Below, one piece after another: positions 22,878 to 34,539 of a DNA stretch of 64,000 bases (positions are counted from its first letter, which is position 1; each line of letters begins with the position of its first letter). Origin of the DNA: an uncultured Planctomycetaceae bacterium. Its GTDB lineage: Bacteria > Planctomycetota > Planctomycetia > Planctomycetales > Planctomycetaceae. The notes below the pieces were generated by a model. The model did no database searches. It saw only the letters and a list, made by a program, of their open reading frames with translations, and was not told where the DNA came from. Location: positions 248,001 to 312,000 of the forward strand of contig CAXBME010000005.1 of assembly GCA_963976765.1 (NCBI GenBank), written 5' to 3'. A program made the position numbers and the translations under genes.

Positions 22878-23696
22878 ATGAAGACAACCGGCGACATTCA
22901 GCACGGAAGGTTCTCGGCGAGCATCACAGCCACCGTCAGCTTTCTTCGAGGAATACCGTTCTACTTTCGATCGAGCCCCCGAACTCCATTACGAGTTCTC
23001 TGTCTGATGGCGTTTGACACGCTTCACGTGCTTCGGTCTTCGAAACGACTCTCCAAACAATGTCTGCAGGAACTGGCAACGCTGCTGGATTTTGGAGCGT
23101 GCGCGAACGCGTTCTTCGATTCCAAAAATTTCGATCACCAGGAGTATCGACGAACCCGGCAGACGCTCGCCGATTTCAGCCTGGGCAAGCCGGTCGACGA
23201 ATACGTCAGGAAACTGCGAGAGCTTGAAAGGCATCGCCCGTTACCGGGTGGCGACGATCGATCGCACGGAGATGTCAAAACGTATCGCGAAGAAGTCGTG
23301 AGACTTTCGTTGGGCATCGTCGGCACGGTTGCCAACGATCGCTGCTCAGTCGAGTCCGGCATCAGGCAAACGCATCATGACGATGGCCTGAATATGTTGT
23401 TTCGACTGGTTATGTTCTGTCAGATTATTGACGACGTACTGGATTGGCCGCACGACCTGGTGGCCGGGATTCCGAGTTTCACGACAGGACATGCCTCGCT
23501 GAGTCGGGCGATCGAGCTGACTCGCGACGCGACCGTTGCTTATCGTCGTGACGTGCCCGCAGCCCCGTGCCTCTTTCCGTTGCGCGTCGCCTTGTACGGC
23601 CTGTCGATAACTACTCGGCTGATGCTCGCAACAGGTCGCCTGATATTGGTTTCGCCGCTGGTTCGGCAGAACGTCCGAGAGGTATCGCTTCGCTAA
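22878..23696 (+). CDS. Helical protein with class-I isoprenoid-synthase-like Asp-rich motif
   Basis: [18 protein letters not shown] resembles the second Asp-rich motif (Q..DD..D) of prenyltransferase/terpene synthase folds. Confidence 0.5.
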
Positions 23697-24415
23697 TCCG
23701 GCACAACGCCGTTGTGATAAACGTCCTGGACATCGTCGCAATCGTTGAGCATCGTCATGAATTTTTCGAACATCGGTAGGTCGTCTTTGCTGATTTCAGC
23801 ATTGGCCTGAGGGATAAACGTGACTTCCTGGACCTCCAGTTCGAGTTCCGGGAACGCTTCCTGCAGTGCCTGCGTGGCCTTGAAGAATTCACTGGCCGGG
23901 GCGAACAGCGTCAGTTGGCCATCTTTGTTCTCGATGTCGTCGACGTCGACGTCCGCGTCCAGCATCGCTTCAAGGACTTCGTCTTCGTTGTCGCCTTTGA
24001 ATGAAAAGACCGCCAGATGATCGAAGAGATGGGCGACCGACCCCGCCGGACCGAGCTTTGACCCCGTCTTCGTGAAGCAGTTTCGAACATCGGTAATTGT
24101 TCGGTTTGGATTGTCGGTTAAGCAGTCAACGATGACTGAGCATCCGCTGGGACCAAATCCTTCATAGCGAGCTGCCGTGTAATCTTCTCCACCGGTCCCC
24201 TTGGCCTTTTCAATAGCTTTCTCAATAACATGGCTGGGCACCTGCTCCCGCTTGGCCCGTTCGATCATGCTCCGCAGTGAGGGGTTGGCTTCAGGGTCGG
24301 GCACTCCGTTTTTAGCGGCCATGTAGAGCTGTTTGCCGTACTTCGAATACAGCTTGGACTTCTGCCCCGCCGTCTTCATGATCGAATGCTTGCGGTTTTC
24401 GAAACTTCTTCCCAT
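23693..24415 (-). CDS. yebC: YebC/PmpR-family protein
   Basis: [43 protein letters not shown]. Confidence 0.93.
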
Positions 24416-24644
24416 GGCGGTTATCTTTGACGTCGTGCGGATTTATTGAGAGTTCAGGTCGATTCAGCCTCCTGCGGTGATTGCGGAAGGGCCCGAGCAC
24501 AAGACCCAGAGCGTGCGAATGGTCGCATCGATCGGTGATTTGATCAATCAACAAACCGACTCAATCAGCCCGCTCACCGTCAGAAGTTACGGTCAGCAAG
24601 AGTCGACCCGCGAAGCATCACCGTGGCATCACCCGCTGCATTTC

Positions 24645-24714
24645 AAGTCAACGGCTCATCTGTGGATTACATGGCTTGGCAGCAGTCACAAAACCGCTCT
24701 CAAGCACGACCTGC
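24645..24714 (+). pseudogene. Remnant of the 3' end of a related tyrosine integrase
   Basis: Translates KSTAHLWITWLGSSHKTALKHDL versus KYPAHVVCEWLGNSHKVALKHYL in the intact integrase (14/23 identical); catalytic Tyr replaced by Asp. Confidence 0.75.
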
Positions 24715-24716
24715 CG

Positions 24717-24832
24717 GCACCGACGAGAACCGAGTTACTCAGAAATGCAAAAAGCCCCGGAAAATCCGAGGCTTTGCTGAATGGTGCCGAGCGGTTCCGC
24801 TCTGTTCCTGTCGTAAAAGTGGGCGATGCAGG
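24717..24832. repeat. Left att direct repeat (116 bp)
   Basis: Identical to 31214-31329 except T24735/C31232; last 13 bp are the reverse complement of the tRNA-Val 3' end. Confidence 0.95.
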
Positions 24833-25124
24833 CCCAGAACATATCGACGATTTCCCGGAGAAAACTGCCATTCTCGGGAAAGGTATATCAGAACTCACTC
24901 GCGAAGAGCTGATTTCGCTTGCCAGCAGCCTCGCCGAACAGCTTGCGAAACTCGCTTCGAAACCATCATAGCCAACGTTTCAAATCTGATTCCAAAAGTT
25001 TTCTGCCTCAAGGTTACCGCATTGTTTTCAACAGACTTGAACTCTTGAATACATTCAACATCATTAAAGCAAGTGAAACCGATTGGAGATCGACAATTGT
25101 AAACTTGCTCTGACTGGAGAGGCC

Positions 25125-26699
25125 ATGAATTCCATCCAACTACAATCTACGGCAACGGCGATTCTCGGCGTGATGCTTTTCGCCTTAACCTCAACTGTCA
25201 ATGCTCAAGGCGAGAATTCGCGGGAACTATTGACCGCTGTAAAGATCGGCGAGAAGTCCTACGTTGGAGTCGTTCAAGAAAACGAAGACTCACGTTCTGA
25301 GGTTGTTCTTGAGGACGTTACAACAGGCAAAGTTCGAACGTTTCGGAAAGCACAACTTTCTGGGGAAGCTCGGCAAGTAACAGATACGGAAGCAATCGAG
25401 CTTACTGAGAACCCAGCAGCAGTCATCGCTTGGAGATTTTCAAAGTCGATTCCCAAGGGAAGTTTGCACGGAAAGGTTGCCGCCGCAACCGGAGGTCTCA
25501 TCTATACGACATTGGGAAAAGGAGAAGTTGCAGTTGGCAACGAACTCTTGGTCCATCGTGGCGAGACAGTCATCAAAGACCCGGATACTGGTGAAGTTCT
25601 TGGTCGTCAGAAGAGACTTGTCGCCAAAATTGAAGTAACTGCGATTCAGGGACGACTCTCGAAGGCAAGAGTCAAAGGTGACCTTGAGGTCGTTATTCAA
25701 GTTGGTGATCAAGTTGAGTATCAGCAGCCGAGTTCTGCGATTGCCGTACTTCCTCCAAGTGATATCAATGGGGCTGAATTCGAAGGAACAATTCATTTTG
25801 CTGACGAAGTCGTGAATCAACTTGTACGGCGAAAAGTGAAGGTAGTTGAGAGAGCAAAGCTACTGGACACCTTGGAAGAAATGGCCCTGCAATCGACATT
25901 CATTTTTGATGAAGCGACGACAGCAAGAGTCGGTAAGCAACTCGGAGCTACTCATGTAATTACTGGAAGCGTAGCCCGAGCCAGAGGAACTGGACTTACT
26001 GCCCAATTCAATATCAGGCTGGTCAATGTTGCGACTGGTCAGGTTGAGAACTCGTCTATCTTCAAGACGTATCCGTTTCGATTTGTTCCGGCTGGAGAAG
26101 CTAGATCATCAAGTTACAGCTCTGGCAGACGGCGAAAGATCGATGTATTCGAAGGGGTAAAAGCAGTAGCACCTGCAACAGAAAAGGGAAGTTGGGCAAT
26201 CGCACAAGGCGGCATCATGAATACGGCTGACCTTTCAATTATTTCTCTTCCTGTTGAAGCATCTGGCAGCTTTCAACTCGAACTTGAGATCAATCGACTG
26301 TCAGGAGACAACGCTCTGATGATCTTCTTTCCTGTAGGGTCGTCTGCTGCGTCGTATCATATTAGCCACGGCGGCCCATTTGCCGACGGGGAATACCATT
26401 GCTTGGATCACATTGACGGGCAATCTTCGTCGAAGAATGAAACACGGTCGAATGGCAGGATTCCCAACGGTCAATGGATCAAGGTTTCATTGGATGTGAG
26501 TATTCGGAGAGACAAAGCGACGATTGAAGCAACGCTGGGAGGAAAGCAGATAATCAAATGGGAAGGTGACGTGAGCAGAATTGCTCCTTCGCCAGGTTGG
26601 CATGTAGCCAACAGAAAGCAGTTTGGTTTGGGAGTTCAACGTTCAAGGGTTGCTTTTAGAAATCTCGAAATTACGGGAACTGCAAAACCTGTAAGGTGA
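25125..26699 (+). CDS. Secreted cargo protein: FlgT-C-like + CsgG/HfaB(FlgO)-like + C-terminal beta-sandwich (DUF1080-like)
   Basis: GGAGAGG RBS, signal peptide; IKDPDTGEVLG...AKIEVT...SKA; VVER..L...LEE.ALQ...DEATTARVGKQLGATHVITGS; FQLELE...VAFRNLEI. Confidence 0.7.
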   Translation: MNSIQLQSTATAILGVMLFALTSTVNAQGENSRELLTAVKIGEKSYVGVVQENEDSRSEVVLEDVTTGKVRTFRKAQLSGEARQVTDTEAIELTENPAAVIAWRFSKSIPKGSLHGKVAAATGGLIYTTLGKGEVAVGNELLVHRGETVIKDPDTGEVLGRQKRLVAKIEVTAIQGRLSKARVKGDLEVVIQVGDQVEYQQPSSAIAVLPPSDINGAEFEGTIHFADEVVNQLVRRKVKVVERAKLLDTLEEMALQSTFIFDEATTARVGKQLGATHVITGSVARARGTGLTAQFNIRLVNVATGQVENSSIFKTYPFRFVPAGEARSSSYSSGRRRKIDVFEGVKAVAPATEKGSWAIAQGGIMNTADLSIISLPVEASGSFQLELEINRLSGDNALMIFFPVGSSAASYHISHGGPFADGEYHCLDHIDGQSSSKNETRSNGRIPNGQWIKVSLDVSIRRDKATIEATLGGKQIIKWEGDVSRIAPSPGWHVANRKQFGLGVQRSRVAFRNLEITGTAKPVR

Positions 26700-26835
26700 T
26701 TTAGAGTTGGTAGACCAAATCAAAAGGTTAAGAATTCAAGGCTTCAATGAAATGTAACTGTGGGCATCTAATGAAAATGAATGCCTCGTGTATTCGTCGC
26801 CGCATTTGAGCCGCCGATTTGCGTCCGATTTCCCA

Positions 26836-27052
26836 ACTATTTCGGGAAAACTTCGAAAACTTCCCGGAATTATCCGGTAAAACGCCCACTACAGGAGCCT
26901 ATAGGGTGAGAGACGACATCGAACTTGCAGACAGCCACGTCACCGACGGTTGAGCGTCGAGTTTCCAGCAGCAGCCCTGACTATTTCGGGAAAAATTTGG
27001 AAACTTCCCGGAATTATCCGCCAAAACGTCCACCGCCAGAGCCTATAGGGTG
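26836..27052. repeat. Two 73-bp direct repeats, 144 bp apart (26836-26908, 26980-27052)
   Basis: Manual alignment gives 63/73 identity; shared blocks ACTATTTCGGGAAAA, AAACTTCCCGGAATTATCCG, GAGCCTATAGGGTG. Confidence 0.9.
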
Positions 27053-27162
27053 GGGCAGTCGATCGCGGCGGCTTTCACTCACTCTCAGTTCCGACGTTGG
27101 CACATCAGGGAACTTTGAGACTCTGGATACAGAACAGCCGTTCCGAATCCGGAAGAATTGGC

Positions 27163-27717
27163 CTGATTCGCCCGGAATCAGCTCGCACAACTACTCTTTC
27201 TCGGCATGTATTATAGAGAGCTTGTACCAACCACTTCTCTCCAACCACTCACCCCACCACCACAGCACACGCTCAGTCACAAATCGAACGAACGATTAAC
27301 TGAGCTTCCCACAGTGCTATTGGTTAGTGAAGCAGTCCCACCGTTGAACTTCAAACAGTTCAATTGATTGAGGGGAAAGCGTTCGGCTCAATTCAATCTG
27401 AGCCGCCATTGCTTTAGAGGCCAATGCTGAAGCCTCACGAAACTGATTCTTTTGCTTTCGAATCAGAAACGAAAACTGATCGCTCTGCTGATTGAATTCG
27501 TCATTCATCGACGAAAATGCAGAAGCTCAAGCTCAGTTGAAGAACCACAATCTTAGTTTCTCCTGCTTGTTTGAAGGTGACTGATTTCCGGCTTTTGCTT
27601 AGCCGTGAATGAAGGCCCCCGCCGCCTTCGGGGATGCCATCTCACCAGAGTGTGAACAAACAATACCCACCTCGCTTTCCATGTGCTGTTTCGGCTTTTG
27701 CCGGAGCAGCTTTTTTT
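27163..27717 (+). ncRNA. Candidate structured non-coding RNA/leader (or folded ssDNA signal)
   Basis: Series of 5-7 bp stems plus a 10-bp long-range pairing (27298-27307 with 27529-27538), ending in a hairpin + T7 terminator; no convincing ORF. Confidence 0.45.
27685..27717 (+). terminator. Intrinsic terminator/attenuator just upstream of the polymerase-like gene
   Basis: GCTGTTTCGGC-TTTT-GCCGGAGCAGC-TTTTTTT. Confidence 0.8.
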
Positions 27718-27750
27718 GTGTCTCGTGTTCTATCGAAAGGAAACCCAAGA

Positions 27751-29082
27751 GTGACAACATCAAAGAAAAGAGTTTTAACAGCGGCGAAGCTGATCGAGAG
27801 CAGTGCTTTTAAGAATCTCCAGCCTATTGATCTTGCCTTTCAAAGCTGGAAATCTCAGAGGATACATCAAGAGAACATCATCCTGACTCTTTGGGCAATT
27901 ATTCAAAGAAACAAATCAAGAAATGCGTTCGTCAAGATTCACAGCACGAAGCTGCTTTCATACGGAGGGACCAACTACTCAAAGTATTTAGGCTGGCTAA
28001 TCAAAGAAGGATTCATCGAGAGACGCGGCCCATACATTCCAAATCATTCAAGCTGGAAGTACCGCATTCAGGAGAAAGGCCAGCAACTTGAAGAGTACGA
28101 ACTACTGACATCCAGAAAGTTCATGCCGTCTCCCAACTTGTCATCCATGACAGAAATCGAAAGCGAGACCTATCGAAACCTGATGAACTTGAAAATCGAT
28201 TTGGCTGAAGCAGAAGCCATATTCGCTGGCATCCGGCCAGCGGCACAGATTTCAGCAAGAATGGCAATCAATGAATTCGCCAATCAATCTTTCTGTCCTT
28301 CCCAATCAAACAAGACCGGGAGGGTTTCGTCAGTTGTGACCTATATGAACTCGCCATTAAGGGCTGCACTCACTTGGCACGGCGATGAAATCATGTCGGT
28401 GGATGTTGTGAATTCTCAACCGCTTTGTCTTGCGGCGATTGCTGACTGTCCGAAGTACCAATCCATTGTTGAATCGGGCCAGATTTATGAAGAGATTCAG
28501 CAGGGCATCGGGGTATCTGAAAGAGACTTGGCAAAGACAGCGTTCATGACCTTTGCCTATGGGCCAATCTGCAATTCAAAACCTGCGACCTACGGCAGAA
28601 CAGCAGAAGAGATTGCCCTCAACGATCCAGTCAAAAGAAAGTCGATCACTCGAAAAGCGGCCAGACTCAGAAAGAAAGGATTAGCAGTTCCTGATGAAGC
28701 AGCATTGAAAAAGAAACTCGAAACGAAGCGACTCAAGAAAGAACTCAGGGCCAGAACAGCAGAGTTCTTCAGAACGAAGTTTCCGAAAGCTGTCAAAGTT
28801 CTGGATTCGCTGAAGAGTGGATCGACCGAAAAGCCATATCGAAAAGCAGCATGGAAACTACAGCAGATTGAAGCCGAAGCCGTTATCGAAAGCTGCTTTC
28901 TGCCTTTGGCCCGGAAAGAGATTCCAGTGCTAAGCGTTCATGATTGCTTGCTTACAACGCCAGCCAGTGTAAGTGCCGTTGAGAATGCAATGTCAAAGGA
29001 GATAGCGGCTCACCTTGGCAAGATTGCTGGCCGAAAATGCGTGGTTGAACTCAAGACTACGAAATGGAGAAAACCTACCTAG
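27751..29082 (+). CDS. Minimal family-A-polymerase-like protein (wHTH-like N-terminus + palm/fingers, no exonuclease domain)
   Basis: TGRVSS, motif A-like SVDVVNSQP, motif B-like RDLAKTAFMTFAYG, LQQIEA, motif C-like LSVHDCLL; GTG start at 27751 after AAAGGA (443 aa). Confidence 0.75.
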   Translation: MTTSKKRVLTAAKLIESSAFKNLQPIDLAFQSWKSQRIHQENIILTLWAIIQRNKSRNAFVKIHSTKLLSYGGTNYSKYLGWLIKEGFIERRGPYIPNHSSWKYRIQEKGQQLEEYELLTSRKFMPSPNLSSMTEIESETYRNLMNLKIDLAEAEAIFAGIRPAAQISARMAINEFANQSFCPSQSNKTGRVSSVVTYMNSPLRAALTWHGDEIMSVDVVNSQPLCLAAIADCPKYQSIVESGQIYEEIQQGIGVSERDLAKTAFMTFAYGPICNSKPATYGRTAEEIALNDPVKRKSITRKAARLRKKGLAVPDEAALKKKLETKRLKKELRARTAEFFRTKFPKAVKVLDSLKSGSTEKPYRKAAWKLQQIEAEAVIESCFLPLARKEIPVLSVHDCLLTTPASVSAVENAMSKEIAAHLGKIAGRKCVVELKTTKWRKPT

Positions 29083-29266
29083 AACAAGAATAGAGAGAGA
29101 AGAGAGAGGGCTGCACCTAGGGTCTATGTTTTTCGTTTTGACAGATTTCGCCTCGTCACTGCGAGCATTGGCCGTGCCGACTGATCGATCACGGTCGAAC
29201 AACAGAAAGGAGAGTAAGCAATGACCTGACAAAGAATCACTGACTGAAAATCACGAAGTTGTGTTG

Positions 29267-29297
29267 GCCTCCCAGAATGGTCTGGAGAGGCTTTTTT
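29267..29297 (+). terminator. Intrinsic terminator
   Basis: GCCTCCCAGA-ATGG-TCTGGAGAGGC-TTTTTT. Confidence 0.75.
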
Positions 29298-29325
29298 CGT
29301 TTACCCGACTATTGAAGGATGTTTT

Positions 29326-29679
29326 ATGAGTTTGAATTCAAGTGAAGCAGCATGGTTAAGAAAAGTGCTGTTCATCATTGCCACGTATCATGATCAATGT
29401 GTAGCCCAAGCAGAGAAGGCTGGAGATCGTGCTGGAGTGAAGTATCACGCGGCAAAAGCGATTTGGTCTCGTGCTATTGGCGAGAACGCTGAATTTCGAC
29501 AAGGCGTGGAAACTGAAGAACTACGCGAGCTGGCTGGAGAACTGAGCGATCAAAGAAACCGGAGCTTGGAGTCTCTCGAATCAGGCGGAGAAGAATTGAT
29601 TGCAACGGAAACCAAAGAGCAATCAGAGATTGCTGAGTTCTGCCGGATCATGGAAAGGAGATGCCAAGAGAATATGTAG
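29326..29679 (+). CDS. Hypothetical helical protein (element-encoded)
   Basis: 117-aa ORF with GAAGGA RBS, flanked by terminators; no family recognised. Confidence 0.65.
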   Translation: MSLNSSEAAWLRKVLFIIATYHDQCVAQAEKAGDRAGVKYHAAKAIWSRAIGENAEFRQGVETEELRELAGELSDQRNRSLESLESGGEELIATETKEQSEIAEFCRIMERRCQENM

Positions 29680-29741
29680 CGTGAAAGCTGACTACTACGA
29701 ACTTATTCGCTGATTGATTTTCAGCATCGATATTGATTTTG

Positions 29742-29777
29742 CCCCGGTACAGAAGCCTCTGTTTCCGGGGTTTCTTT
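29742..29777 (+). terminator. Intrinsic terminator upstream of xis-int
   Basis: CCCCGG.ACAGA-AGCC-TCTGT..CCGGGG-TTTCTTT. Confidence 0.65.
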
Positions 29778-29823
29778 ATTTCATGTGTTTGTTTTTTCAG
29801 ATTACTCAAGAAGGATATTTCTA

Positions 29824-30069
29824 ATGAATGACGATGTTTCTAAAATTACCTTCGAACAGAGTTTGAGTCAGTCTTCAACTGACCAAACCGTATCTCGCAG
29901 CGATGTGAGCTTGCTGTCGAAGAAAGATATTTCCTGCCTGTTCCAGATCAGTGAACGACAAGTCACGAATCTGATGAAGACCCCCCGATTTCCGAAGAAG
30001 ATTAAGGGGCTTGGCAGAAGCGTTCGGTTCTCAGCCTCAGCGGTGAAGGAGTTCGTACAGAATGGCTAG
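29824..30069 (+). CDS. AlpA/excisionase-like HTH protein
   Basis: LLSKKDISCLFQISERQVTNLMKTPRFPKKIKGLGRSVRFS...VKEFV; overlaps integrase start by 8 nt. Confidence 0.85.
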   Translation: MNDDVSKITFEQSLSQSSTDQTVSRSDVSLLSKKDISCLFQISERQVTNLMKTPRFPKKIKGLGRSVRFSASAVKEFVQNG

Positions 30070-31357
30070 TCTTACCCAAACTCCAAAGGGACCGAAGATT
30101 CAACTGATTTGCCCAGACGGGAAACGACGCCCGATTTATCTGGGTGCGAAACTTACGAAACGACAAGCTGAATCTGTGCTGAGCTACGTCGAAAGATTGG
30201 CTCACTCTGTCGAAAGTAACACAGTTCCAGAGAGAGAAGTTTCTAAATGGCTCGGGGAAGTTCCCGAGAAACTCTATAAGAAGCTGGTTACATGTGGACT
30301 TGCAACGGCTCGTGAGAAGATCGTGAGCCAAACAATCGAGCGTCTGATTTCAGACTATGTGGCAAGTCGAAATGGAGTCGCAGAATCGACGATAGCCAGA
30401 TGGACGACTGTGACGAATCACCTGTTTGCCTACTTTGGAAAAGAGAAGCCATTAACCGAAGTGACGGCAGGGGATGCTGATGACTTCAGTGAGTATTTGA
30501 AGTCAAAAGGCACTGCTGACAACAGCCGCAGAAGATATCTCGGAATCGCAAAGCAATTCTTTACATGGGCTGTCCGCCACAAGCTGATTGCGGAGAATCC
30601 ATTTGCTGATCAGAAGACCTCAGTTGGTGACAGTGATCCCAAACGGCAGTTCTTCGTAGATCGCGAGTTGTCAGAAAGAATTCTTGAAACCTGCCCGGAT
30701 TCAGAATGGAAGCTGATCTTTGCTCTGATGAGGTTTGGCGGTTTACGTTGTCCAACAGAAGTTCTGAATCTTCGATGGGAAGACATTCTTTGGGGTAAGT
30801 CTCGATTTCGTATCTACAGTCAGAAGACAGATCAAACGAGATACTGTCCGATCTTTCCGGAACTCCTGCCGTATCTAAGTTCAAGTTTTGAATTAGCTGA
30901 TGACGGTGAAGAATTCGTGATTTCAAAACGACACGGGATGACGCATCGAGGATTGATTGCTCAGTACAAACGAATCCTGCATTTTGCTGCCGTAGATCAG
31001 TACCCGAAGCTGTTTCAGAATCTGCGGTCCACCAGACAGACGGAATTGACCCGTAAGTACCCGGCTCACGTCGTCTGTGAATGGCTCGGTAACAGTCATA
31101 AAGTCGCTCTGAAGCACTACCTGCAAGTTACAGACGAGGATTTCGAGGCGGCAGCCGCAAAAGTAGATCACTTGCCCGAAAAAGTAGATCACATAGTAGA
31201 TCAGCACCCGCACGCACCGACGAGAACCGAGCTACTCAGAAATGCAAAAAGCCCCGGAAAATCCGAGGCTTTGCTGAATGGTGCCGAGCGGTTCCGCTCT
31301 GTTCCTGTCGTAAAAGTGGGCGATGCAGGAATCGAACCTGCGACTTCCACCGTGTGA
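30062..31357 (+). CDS. Tyrosine recombinase/integrase
   Basis: SAM-like core-binding domain (ENPF), catalytic GGLRCPTE, SQKT, FQNLRST, WLGNS, KHYL; 3' end reads through the att repeat into antisense tRNA. Confidence 0.95.
   Translation: MASLTQTPKGPKIQLICPDGKRRPIYLGAKLTKRQAESVLSYVERLAHSVESNTVPEREVSKWLGEVPEKLYKKLVTCGLATAREKIVSQTIERLISDYVASRNGVAESTIARWTTVTNHLFAYFGKEKPLTEVTAGDADDFSEYLKSKGTADNSRRRYLGIAKQFFTWAVRHKLIAENPFADQKTSVGDSDPKRQFFVDRELSERILETCPDSEWKLIFALMRFGGLRCPTEVLNLRWEDILWGKSRFRIYSQKTDQTRYCPIFPELLPYLSSSFELADDGEEFVISKRHGMTHRGLIAQYKRILHFAAVDQYPKLFQNLRSTRQTELTRKYPAHVVCEWLGNSHKVALKHYLQVTDEDFEAAAAKVDHLPEKVDHIVDQHPHAPTRTELLRNAKSPGKSEALLNGAERFRSVPVVKVGDAGIEPATSTV
31159..31204. repeat. Three AGTAGATCA direct repeats, putative integrase arm-type sites
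   Basis: AAAAGTAGATCAC x2 then TAGTAGATCAG, inside the integrase 3' end next to the att repeat. Confidence 0.65.
31214..31329. repeat. Right att direct repeat (116 bp)
   Basis: Copy of 24717-24832; overlaps the tRNA 3' end and includes hairpin AAAGCCCCGGA-AAA-TCCGAGGCTTT, a likely minus-strand tRNA terminator. Confidence 0.95.
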
Positions 31358-31389
31358 AGATGGCACTCTAGCCGCTGAGTTAATCGCCC
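31317..31389 (-). tRNA. tRNA-Val (anticodon CAC)
   Basis: Reverse complement GGGCGATTAACTCAGCGGCTAGAGTGCCATCTTCACACGGTGGAAGTCGCAGGTTCGATTCCTGCATCGCCCA folds as a cloverleaf; CCA not encoded. Confidence 0.96.
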
Positions 31390-31401
31390 TTGAGTGACGG
31401 C

Positions 31402-31430
31402 GTTTTAGTCGGATTGACGAGGCACTTCAA
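31402..31430 (-). promoter_or_regulatory. Sigma70-type promoter for tRNA-Val
   Basis: Minus strand TTGAAG-17 nt-TAAAAC ending 12 nt before the tRNA 5' end. Confidence 0.55.
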
Positions 31431-31650
31431 CTCTTCAATCAGGTCTGATCACCGGTGTAACGTACCGGTTGTGCGGATCGAATCGGTGTGTTCGTGAGCA
31501 AAAATCCAAAGACAAATTGACGGTTGCAATCTTTGGCGGGTAACGTATCAACGATTTCTGATTGATTGGCGAGCCTCGCCATCCCACCTGAATCGCAGGA
31601 ACACACTTGCGTCCTGCACCTGCCTCACTCCTTCCTTCCGGGCACGCGCC

Positions 31651-34539
31651 ATGTTCAGCATTGCCGGAGCTAATACTCGCATCGTTACGCGGGTTGCCTT
31701 GACGCTTACTTTGTCTGTGTGGTTCGCGTTTGGTGAGATTCCTCGCGCCGCAGCGGATGACTCATTGCACGCCCGAATTGATCAATTGTCAGACCGGGCA
31801 GCTGTCGGGCCTCGCGGAGCTATCGTTGATGACCTCACATTTCTGCGACGGGTAACTCTTGATCTGACCGGCCAAATCCCGTCGATCGTCGAGGCTCGGG
31901 AATTCCTGGCCGATGAGTCCCCCGACAAACGCACACGAACCGTCGATCGCTTGATGTCGAGTCCGGCATTCTATCGGCACCTCGCTGTCGTATTTGACGT
32001 CATGCTGATGGAACGCCGTGGCGACAAGCATGTGAAGAGCGTCGAATTTCGTGCGTGGTTGCAGGATTTCTTTCAGCAGAAAAGACCGTACAACGAACTC
32101 GTTCACAGCCTGTTGTCGGCAGACGGTACGGACGAGAAGCAACGAGCGACGGCGGCATTCTTTCTTGAGCGGGATGTCGAGCCGAATCTGCTGACGCGCG
32201 ATCTCGGACGAATGTTCTTCGGCATCGATCTGCAGTGTGCCCAGTGTCACGATCATCCGTTGATCGATGACTACCATCAGACCGACTACTTCGGAACTTT
32301 TTCGTTCGTCAATCAACTGACTGTCTTCCAGCCGGATGCAAAGAAGCCGGCGTTGATCGGCGAAACCGTTAGCGGCCAGTCAGAATTCAAATCAGTTTTT
32401 ACCGAACGGGAAGCGGTCACGTCTCCGCGACTGCCGGGTGACGTCGAAATCGTCGAACCGGTTTTCACGATCGGCGATGAGTACACCGTGCGACCGGCAA
32501 AGACTGTTCGTCCCGTTCCGAAGTTCAGTCGGCAGATCAGACTGGCCGAGCTGATTTCATCCGGGCAGAACCCACTCTTCCGCCGCAACATCGTCAACCG
32601 ACTCTGGGGCATGATGATGGGGCGGGGGCTCGTCCACCCGGTCGACCAGCATCACTCCGAAAACCCTGCAACGAATCCTGCGTTGCTTGATCTGCTCAGT
32701 GATGAATTCGCGAGGGCAAATTACAATGTCCACTCGTTGTTGCGCGAGATTGCTTTGTCGCAAACTTACCAGCGATCATGGCAGTTGCCTTCAGACCTGT
32801 CACCATCGGTCGATGCTGCGGAGAAGGTACTCGCCGAGTTGAACGCTCTGATTACTTCTAACAACGCCCGGGTCGACGAGAAGCAGGCTGAGGCGACAGC
32901 AGCTCTCGAAGAACTGGACAAGGCACTTGCCGAAGCCAGACCATTGCGGACGGCGTTACAGAAGGCTGTCACTGCGGCGCAGGCCGAAGCTACCAAACTC
33001 GATACAGCAACCACTGCCGTAACGACTCATCAAGGTAACTTCGAGCAGAAGAATTCAGCGGCGGTTGCTGTCCGTGCAGCCGCTGCCAGCGCGCAGGCAG
33101 CTTCGATGTCGATTGCTGGCGACAAGGAACTGACAGCTTCGGCGAAGCTCCTGGACACGAAAGCGGTGAAGCTCGAAGCCGAAGCGGCAAAACTGAAGAC
33201 AGCACTTGACGCATCAATCAAGGCTGTCGCCGCCGCAGAAGCAAAACTCGCCGAGGCTAACAAGCCAGTTGAAGCAGCTCGCGCGGCACTGTCACCTGTC
33301 GAAGCGAAAGTTCGAGAGAGACGTGCGACCCATGTCGCACTCCGTGAAGAAATCCGGAAAACCCGGGAAGCCGCTCGCCACGCTCAACGGCGAGCACGAT
33401 TTCTCGAAACGGTCGTGAAACTTGACGCTGCTGAGAAATCGCTCGCCGACGCCGGACCGCAACTGGCCAGCGCCGAGCCGGTGAGCAAAGCGACGGAGGC
33501 CGAATACGTCGCTGCTGAGAAAGCTCGCCAAACTTCTGAATCACAAATGAAAGCGGCTGCCAGCGCGGCCACCACCGGCAAGGCTGAACTCGCCAGTCTG
33601 CAAAGACGCCTCAACGGATTGCAACTTGCTGATAAGTCGATTGGTGAGTCATTTTTAGCGGCAAGTGCAGCGGCAAAGTTGCTGAGCAGTGACTCCGATT
33701 TGTCTCAAACCGTTGTTGCGCTGACTGATGCCCAGAAGCGAATCGGCGGAGACCTGTCTGAAATGCAGACCCTGGTGGAAGCTCAACAGGTCGTCGCGTT
33801 GAAGTTGCAGGAACAGCTCGCGGTGTCGACCGCTGCGTTTGAGTCGGCATCTCAGAAAGCGGACGAGCTGAAAGATCGATCGGCTGAACTGGCCGCAACT
33901 GTTGCGAAACTTCGCGGACAGGTTCAACAGGCGAAGCTGACGATCGATGAGTCGTCGGACAAGGTGGTGCTCGAAGCGTCTTCTCACTTCAACATCGCAG
34001 TCGTTGAACCGCTGACTCCGGAACAGCTTGGCTGGAGCATTCTGCAGGCATCCGGACAGCTCGAACGGCAACGGGCTGCGGAACTCGCCAAACTCAACAA
34101 GGCGAAGCCGCTGACGTCGGAAGAGCAGAAGGACTCTGCAAAAACTGCCGAGCGGAACCGCGAGGCCGATGACGCCATGTATAAGTCGCTCAGTGCGAAC
34201 GTTGCGCGATTTGTGACACTTTTCGGAGGCGAAAAAGGACAACCTCAGGATGCCTTCTTCGCGACGGTGGAACAGGCTCTCTTCCTGGCCAACGGCGGGG
34301 AAATTCGAAACTGGCTTGCTCCTTCCGGAGATAACCTGACTGGCCGATTGCTGAAGCTGGAAGACCCAAAGGCGCTGGCCGAAGAACTTTATATCAGCAC
34401 GTTCACTCGACAGCCGCGTGCTGACGAGATTGTCGAAGTCACTAACTACCTTGAACAACGCAAAGACGATCGATCAGCCGCCATTCAGGAAATGGCCTGG
34501 GCACTGCTGACGTCGATCGAGTTTCGATTTAACCGTTAA
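31651..34539 (+). CDS. DUF1549/DUF1553 (PSCyt2/PSD1) protein with long coiled-coil insertion
   Basis: Signal peptide, FLRRVTLDLTG.IP, CAQCHDHP, NIVNRLW..MMGRGLV.PVD, terminal WALLTS.EF.FN. Confidence 0.92.
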   Translation: MFSIAGANTRIVTRVALTLTLSVWFAFGEIPRAAADDSLHARIDQLSDRAAVGPRGAIVDDLTFLRRVTLDLTGQIPSIVEAREFLADESPDKRTRTVDRLMSSPAFYRHLAVVFDVMLMERRGDKHVKSVEFRAWLQDFFQQKRPYNELVHSLLSADGTDEKQRATAAFFLERDVEPNLLTRDLGRMFFGIDLQCAQCHDHPLIDDYHQTDYFGTFSFVNQLTVFQPDAKKPALIGETVSGQSEFKSVFTEREAVTSPRLPGDVEIVEPVFTIGDEYTVRPAKTVRPVPKFSRQIRLAELISSGQNPLFRRNIVNRLWGMMMGRGLVHPVDQHHSENPATNPALLDLLSDEFARANYNVHSLLREIALSQTYQRSWQLPSDLSPSVDAAEKVLAELNALITSNNARVDEKQAEATAALEELDKALAEARPLRTALQKAVTAAQAEATKLDTATTAVTTHQGNFEQKNSAAVAVRAAAASAQAASMSIAGDKELTASAKLLDTKAVKLEAEAAKLKTALDASIKAVAAAEAKLAEANKPVEAARAALSPVEAKVRERRATHVALREEIRKTREAARHAQRRARFLETVVKLDAAEKSLADAGPQLASAEPVSKATEAEYVAAEKARQTSESQMKAAASAATTGKAELASLQRRLNGLQLADKSIGESFLAASAAAKLLSSDSDLSQTVVALTDAQKRIGGDLSEMQTLVEAQQVVALKLQEQLAVSTAAFESASQKADELKDRSAELAATVAKLRGQVQQAKLTIDESSDKVVLEASSHFNIAVVEPLTPEQLGWSILQASGQLERQRAAELAKLNKAKPLTSEEQKDSAKTAERNREADDAMYKSLSANVARFVTLFGGEKGQPQDAFFATVEQALFLANGGEIRNWLAPSGDNLTGRLLKLEDPKALAEELYISTFTRQPRADEIVEVTNYLEQRKDDRSAAIQEMAWALLTSIEFRFNR

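Follow-up and report, generated by a model that had tools for sequence, protein, structure and literature searches.

The window analyzed here is a stretch of 64,000 nucleotides (nt) from an uncultured Planctomycetaceae bacterium (phylum Planctomycetota, class Planctomycetia; contig CAXBME010000005.1 of assembly GCA_963976765.1, positions 248,001 to 312,000). It contains an integrative element inserted at the 3' end of a tRNA gene, and the tyrosine integrase gene of this element, int, runs across the element's own attachment (att) site. The guanine-plus-cytosine content is 47% in the element vs 56 to 57% in the flanks, and the named relatives are Planctomycetaceae. The features that bear on int and its att site, numbered from the first base of the window, are as follows.

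24833..31329, no strand given: integrative element (6497 bp); insertion site, the 3' end of tRNA-Val(CAC)
31316..31389, minus strand: tRNA-Val(CAC), the target gene, intact
31316..31329: att core, tRNA-side copy, 14 nt that are the tRNA 3' end and lie within the int reading frame; the sibling pair P0172/P0173 has the same crossover point
24819..24832: att core, far copy, the displaced tRNA 3' end
30062..31357, plus strand: tyrosine integrase gene int, integrated form, 431 amino acids (PF13102 and PF00589 above cut-off; phrog_1)
24834..24971, plus strand: stranded tail of 45 amino acids, in frame with int on the circle only, with predicted helices at residues 8-15 and 23-42; it diverges from the family motif
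31163..31203, plus strand: three arm-type repeats, GTAGATCA, at 31163, 31184, and 31196, the P' arm within the int linker
24883..24890, plus strand: single arm-type repeat of the P arm at +64 (the first of the positions usual in the family), with one mismatch
24579..24832, plus strand: remnant of the 3' end and P' arm of an older integrase, which supplies 110 of the 124 bases of a direct repeat
31248..31272, minus strand: terminator-like hairpin that the element provides downstream of the tRNA, within the int coding sequence (-18.7 kcal/mol, z -3.3), with a second copy at 24751-24775

Our analysis agrees with the initial annotation of this DNA that the 431-residue integrase ends in antisense tRNA sequence, the gene entering the 3' end of tRNA-Val on the opposite strand; since the tRNA is encoded on the minus strand, int transcription converges on it, as had also been proposed. 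Circularization had been expected to exchange this end for the 45-residue tail and so to give a protein of 468 amino acids, and the product computed for crossovers at 31316, 31322, 31329, and 31330 was the identical 468-residue protein each time. With a domain layout taken from the structure model of a relative, L128, the 431-residue form comprises an arm-binding-like N-terminal domain, a core-binding domain, a catalytic domain, a linker of about 60 residues that doubles as the P' arm, and the antisense-tRNA residues; the catalytic tyrosine lies about 60 codons upstream of the att core. In the L128 model, the arm-binding fold consists of three strands and a helix at the N terminus, with lambda Int as the best match, and the best fold matches of the model are lambda Int and Tn1549 Int (E values of 3e-10 and 5e-10). 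Comparison with L011 gave 127 silent and 43 changed codons in the body of int, and 10 silent and 22 changed codons in the linker; the gene is intact and under purifying selection. The contigs of 3 runs showed no excised joint over 23500-32500, a result that is uninformative either way at a depth of 2 to 6 and with contigs dropping rare forms. A separate observation concerns P0001, a 404-residue integrase variant whose linker jumps into another tRNA frame and which represents either a deletion variant or an assembly error.

A single open frame of 45 codons could be due to chance; the layout as a whole is not, as the statistics of the integrase family show. The family is present in 176 of 401 genomes of the class and in 36 of 401 drawn from the phylum. 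For the survey, 120 regions of at most 20 kb were fetched, nearly all from among the matches listed in the class and phylum searches (three came from a separate search, and 133 matches of the class search lie beyond those listed), and they were chosen by similarity and room on the contig, not by their tails. Together with 7 further loci and 11 pieces of the element's own genome, this gave 138 sources with 144 integrase ends, 142 of them distinct. The catalytic tyrosine is kept in 143 of the 144 ends. A tRNA gene lies within 700 nt of 124 of the 142 distinct ends, always antisense and with 24 anticodon types represented, and 117 of these 124 ends read at least 10 nt into the tRNA, vs 22 of 248 off-frame controls that are open over the same span.

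The initial annotation had named conserved in-frame tails at the far att of homologous elements as the feature to look for, and their absence as part of the grounds for refutation; tails of this kind, open and conserved in each integrase's own frame, are what the survey revealed. A far core of at least 14 nt was found for 58 of the 124 ends (the others extend past the fetched stretch or have none); three in which the open reading frame (ORF) stops before the junction were dropped, leaving 55. A far tail of at least 40 amino acids is open in the integrase frame in 50 of the 55, vs 12 and 16 in the other two frames, and clustering at 70% left the proportions similar, at 38 of 43 in frame vs 7 and 10 off-frame. 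The leave-one-out tail profile, somewhat generous in that close relatives stay in the training set, reached at least 10 bits in the integrase frame in 44 of 55 elements and in none of the 55 in each of the five other frames. In nine elements, the tRNA is read in a different frame; six of these nine show the long tail in the frame of their own integrase, and the tails of the other three measure 0 to 5 amino acids. The integrated forms continue for 0 to 30 amino acids past the junction. A search by pattern for the far att of the closest relatives in 10 genomes found it only in G920 and G404, a tail search in 7 congeners was blank, and single-protein scans of viral, metagenome, and genome collections returned few relatives. 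L145, which matches the window without a difference across 21,293 nt, is not independent.

The element's own genome holds at least 10 family members, on contigs C2, C4, C5, C16, C17, C21, C31, and C40, each ending in a different tRNA and six with an open far tail. The same genome contains tRNA arrays of 38 (C5:82893-88140), 13 (C27), and 24 (C74) genes, with partial agreement in gene order; these may be repeated or split arrays on mobile DNA. Elsewhere in the family, L071 targets a selenocysteine tRNA with the same read-through layout.

The first part of the family tail, which is GGAESGA-like, is the arm repeat read as protein: the P and P' arms share at least 11 nt in 41 of 55 elements vs 7 of 55 mismatched pairs, at positions of about -132/-120 and +64/+76. 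A two-helix hairpin motif that is conserved at the protein level sits beyond these repeats. In the 37 tryptophan-bearing tails, two leucines are kept in 33 and 35 cases, using 4 and 5 different codons, and the nucleotide entropy by codon position is 1.42/1.20/1.64, highest at the third position; in one close pair, 11 codons are silent vs 6 changed. The tail profile matches 10,117 representatives, with a median length of 86 among the best 150. The searches made with family tails gave no Pfam match above cut-off in 39 members, no PHROG match, and a best solved-structure match at an E value of 0.2, and the Atlas matches were to unnamed Planctomycetota clusters only. In a subgroup outside the class (L136, L137, L139, and L140), the tail is shorter and its tryptophan motif is a different one.

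The hairpin also occurs joined to the integrase. The fused form L089 is the inner element of a tandem, L024, and in L128 (13094-14341), whose gene contains no att core, the hairpin is joined immediately to the end of the catalytic domain; in the model of this protein, a disordered linker is followed by helices at 386-396 and 400-410. Among viral contigs, the hairpin is fused in 4 of 40 distinct ends at 10 bits or more, with a fifth, L215, at 9.3 bits; the att region of these fused forms is unrepeated within the DNA examined, which fits free forms and possibly tandem arrays as well. L210, in the tRNA form, and L214, in the hairpin form, are sisters in a quick tree. For the canonical hairpin of L033, homodimer prediction gave a score of 0.57 vs 0.00 for the best of 3 controls, with at least 96% of contacts agreeing between runs and a predicted local distance difference test (pLDDT) value of 86; the mark used was attained for 20 of the 30 homodimers of solved structure and for 1 of the 23 single chains, counts that are only roughly valid with the alignment used. 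The conserved hydrophobic residues fall in the predicted interface. The prediction supports homodimerization of the canonical hairpin.

The tail at 24834-24971 lacks the canonical tryptophan hairpin and has a helical variant only. The earlier description of it as amphipathic-helix-like is borne out with respect to the helix, which AlphaFold2 places at residues 23-42 with pLDDT values of 91 to 94, following a shorter helix at 8-15; the amphipathicity is borderline (a hydrophobic moment of 0.50 in the best 18-residue stretch is reached by 288 of 5000 shuffles). A serine/threonine-type N-cap stands at the position of the motif's helix 2, and the first 20 residues are in the family register (14 of 5000 shuffles score as high); a fold search with this tail gave no match. 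P0166, whose core is a different variant, shares 43 of the 45 residues and also the stop; its score of 13 bits on the full profile is circular, the tail at 24834-24971 being part of that profile. The siblings P0172 and P0173 are identical over 423 amino acids and then part at this crossover, one into the tRNA reading and one into a tail without the hairpin, which confirms the crossover point in nature and indicates that tails are unstable in this lineage.

The att core is embedded in a longer direct repeat, 24709-24832 and 31206-31329, of 124 nt with 4 mismatches, the copies being 6497 nt apart. We considered and rejected the possibility that this repeat is att core throughout: only its last 14 nt are tRNA sequence, and the other 110 nt of the left copy belong to the decayed integrase end listed above. 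This older remnant (tblastn, 24579-24839, E value of 8e-23) lies in the same frame left of the far copy and has an 87-nt gap that takes out its arm-type repeats. The present element thus entered a site that a close relative had used before. A profile test for such older remnants was positive in 5 of 55 elements, and it missed the remnant at 24579-24832 itself. In the P' arm of the present element, the last two GTAGATCA repeats are at the family's usual -132/-120 positions, and the repeats probably serve as arm sites. No empty target site was found in the congeners searched, the yebC side and the tRNA side matching different contigs. In one congener (L143, G406:C227, 1-263), just a 3' remnant of the same integrase stands beside tRNA-Val, which suggests that decay of elements is frequent and that the arm and terminator then stay behind at the tRNA.

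Our results are best read as a switch of the kind described for the Myxococcus phage Mx8, because the tails are open and conserved in each integrase's frame; that the circle makes a tethered-dimer Int favoring integration, and the inserted element a tail-less Int, we consider to have a somewhat better than even chance of being correct. In this module, attP sits in the 3' end of int, past the catalytic tyrosine. As the sequence shows, the Int encoded by the inserted element is catalytically whole and stops a few residues after entering the antisense tRNA; the circle (or the inner member of a tandem array) would encode the same Int with the tail coded at the far end, and the family tail is a conserved two-helix hairpin on a flexible tether. 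The long form might then be tethered into dimers or higher assemblies, and tethering would help it to build the attP complex and capture the tRNA target, allowing a newly arrived or excised circle to integrate efficiently. After integration, only the tail-less form would be made, which may be weaker or excisionase dependent, and the element would stay until induced. The int linker would carry, in addition, the arm sites and the new terminator of the tRNA. The tail at 24834-24971 may still self-associate, less certainly than the canonical hairpin.

A number of observations weigh against this proposal. Far tails are short in 5 of the 55 elements (0, 0, 5, 7, and 30 amino acids), the close pair L139/L140 differs by 17 changed vs 6 silent codons, the viral L209 and L211 have a core-like peptide followed by a short tail, and several viral integrases stop 14 to 50 residues past the tyrosine without any tail, so that the tail is dispensable in some relatives. 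The dimer model describes the L033 hairpin and not the tail at 24834-24971, for which the family profile gives 0.2 bits, the helix profile 0.6 bits (a value reached by 291 of 2000 shuffles), and the non-tryptophan profile 1.3 bits (reached by 266 of 2000). The second P-arm repeat, usual at +76 and part of a pair in 34 of 55 elements, is missing in this element, and the tail of P0172 begins like that at 24834-24971 but lacks the hairpin (-1.3 bits). The lack of a significant match on three profiles, the missing repeat, the other tail of P0172 at the same junction, and the short-tailed junctions L209 and L211 would all suit a tail that is decayed or neutral read-through, in which case the family switch would be real, the functional hairpin would have been lost in this lineage, and the extra 45 residues would be inert. 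We consider this unlikely, if with an appreciable chance, in view of the 43 of 45 residues and the stop kept by P0166 behind a different core variant, the family register of the first 20 residues, the confident helix with its serine/threonine-type N-cap, and the purifying selection on an intact int (127 silent vs 43 changed codons in the body).

It is improbable, in our judgment, that the tail is instead a mini-protein in its own right, translated at the far att of the integrated element, with its start either internal or on the host side, and acting in trans on Int as an inhibitor or as a block to incoming relatives. Gene callers do list such ORFs by the thousands, as the matches to the tail profile illustrate; a start codon lies upstream of the far core in frame in 43 of 55 elements, vs 31 and 23 off-frame; an ORF of 150 to 164 amino acids spans the far core in this element; and a homodimerizing hairpin could poison the long Int. 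The start is unconserved, however, with an in-frame ATG before the hairpin motif in 5 of 37 tails, any common start in 17 of 37, and none in the tail at 24834-24971; furthermore, the tail frame tracks the integrase frame, which a free gene would not need, and the hairpin is permanently fused in L128. Distinctly improbable is that the swap sets the half-life of Int through a degron on one isoform, or that the hairpin binds another partner, such as the excisionase, a host factor, or DNA. A folded module on a long tether could dock elsewhere, and in many elements int is preceded by a small helix-turn-helix (HTH) gene (of 12 upstream ORFs picked by hand, 11 match HTH families), but the conserved hydrophobic positions lie in the predicted homodimer interface. 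The initial annotation had envisaged a recombination-state switch controlling activity, stability, or directionality; the switch gains from the conserved in-frame tails across the family, and a role in stability is not favored because the terminal residues are unconserved in both integrase forms, a finding that also led us to reject a conserved degron. The repressor of phage BPs is said to carry integration-dependent degrons, and attP reportedly lies within its gene. Conservation at the DNA level only, of attP arm sites and hairpins with the open frame as a by-product, would agree with the origin of the GGAESGA-like first motif in the arm repeat, with the arms sharing at least 11 nt (41 of 55 vs 7 of 55), and with the rapid change of the linker protein (10 silent vs 22 changed codons). 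This is largely refuted for the family, and barely credible, since the hairpin is coded past the arm repeats, varies among synonymous codons and at third positions, and occurs in one frame only.

Mx8 has long been one of few examples in which recombination regulates the integrase that performs it; in the planctomycete class the design is common (176 of 401 genomes). The detached part is a hairpin of 30 residues with a predicted dimer interface, so that the effect of the C-terminal swap on direction or rate can be tested with point mutants. A large family of orphan ORFs, the 10,117 representatives, would be explained as integrase tails, and the family offers tRNA-targeting integrases for Planctomycetota, with the circle form as the choice for cloning. 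The present copy is of less consequence than the family because its tail is divergent; the predicted dimerizing hairpin of the family would be the part worth testing, with the present copy as a divergent example. A broader view, that this is a class-wide integrase family with a detachable dimerization domain as a directionality switch, recombination deciding whether Int is dimeric, and whose tail is the source of thousands of short hypothetical proteins, is exchanged between elements in tandem arrays, and could inhibit incoming relatives if translated alone from the far att, is put forward tentatively, and we think it on balance doubtful.

The remainder of the element comprises the following features.

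29824..30069, plus strand: small HTH_17/AlpA-like gene, likely excisionase, with an 8-nt overlap with the int start (phrog_66, E value of 2e-4)
27634..29082, plus strand: ORF of 482 amino acids with a family-A polymerase-like fold, a possible replication protein
26836..27052: two 73-nt direct repeats, 86% alike, in noncoding DNA, possibly an origin (a guess as to function)
25083..26699, plus strand: cargo, an ORF of 538 amino acids with an LpoB/CsgG-like domain
29326..29679, plus strand: ORF of 117 amino acids, of no known family

Every match of the HTH_17/AlpA-like gene is under the curated cut-offs. HTH_17 genes occupy this place in L031 and L082 as well, and an XRE/Cro-type HTH gene abuts the int start in L024, L036, L044, L046, L059, L060, L127, and L129. 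The 482-residue ORF has no Pfam match; one structure row names PF00476, with a template modeling (TM) score of 0.50, and a further match is weak. It sits downstream of the 73-nt repeat pair, and the two might form the replication module of a small island. A promoter scan gave 1 site vs 5.8 expected.

Among known systems, the lambda/Tn1549-type arm-binding integrases (PMC8138268, accessible part) resemble the family in their N-terminal, core-binding, and catalytic domains, two-sided arm repeats, and likely excisionase, while the planctomycete family has in addition a long linker and a state-dependent C-terminal hairpin; the accessible main text of that source does not mention Planctomycetes. 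In the pelagiphages, according to the accessible parts of 10.1101/410191 and PMC8477408, attP is intergenic, and they are thus not precedents. The initial annotation had also cited SSV1, and the comparison applies in that att is translated as part of int. The accessible part of PMC7253208 describes the SSV1 gene as split on integration into two inactive pseudogenes; SSV1 is therefore the looser precedent, because the catalytic domain is whole here. The "suicidal" archaeal integrases of SSV1 and pT26-2, as far as the accessible parts of PMC7253208 and PMC8371274 describe them, share with our family an att translated within int and many tRNA targets, and tandem insertion rebuilds the full gene there, as is seen in L024 here. 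They differ in that their catalytic domain is on the detached part, whereas in the planctomycete family the tyrosine precedes the core and is retained in 143 of 144 ends; an SSV-type suicidal integrase was rejected on the ground that the catalytic domain stays on the main ORF. In the openly accessible literature (titles and abstract openings, with supplements excluded), we found no description of a planctomycete att-in-int family or of the hairpin.

The closest parallel is Mx8, where attP lies inside int and integration gives the gene a new 3' end, which changes activity without eliminating it; the accessible part of PMC6070905 agrees in this with the initial annotation, and the Mx9 integrase is similar (PMC6070905 and PMC4383910, accessible parts). 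Both Mx8 and the element have a tyrosine integrase, a tRNA target, attP in the int coding sequence, and a new 3' end with the catalytic domain kept, and in both the start of int shares 8 nt with the preceding gene, which is the excisionase gene in Mx8 and the likely excisionase gene in the element. A GLEP peptide occurs in the Mx8 record around residue 418 of 533; it results from reading the T arm antisense, as in this element, and probably marks the Mx8 core. Homology to Mx8 Int was rejected, there being no significant similarity of integrase or tail: the pairwise comparison is insignificant (E value of 0.48), a profile match extends to the core-binding part only (E value of 2e-4), and no match to phage records was found at an E value of 1e-5. 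The tails are unrelated, that of Mx8 measuring about 110 amino acids vs 45 to 100 with a two-helix hairpin in the planctomycete family, and we found no account of a structural role for the Mx8 tail. Mx8 is, moreover, one phage, whereas the family consists of small islands of 5 to 25 kb at more than 20 tRNA types in Planctomycetota. The element would work like Mx8 and is not a homologue of it, and the att-in-int principle is one already published for Mx8 and Mx9.

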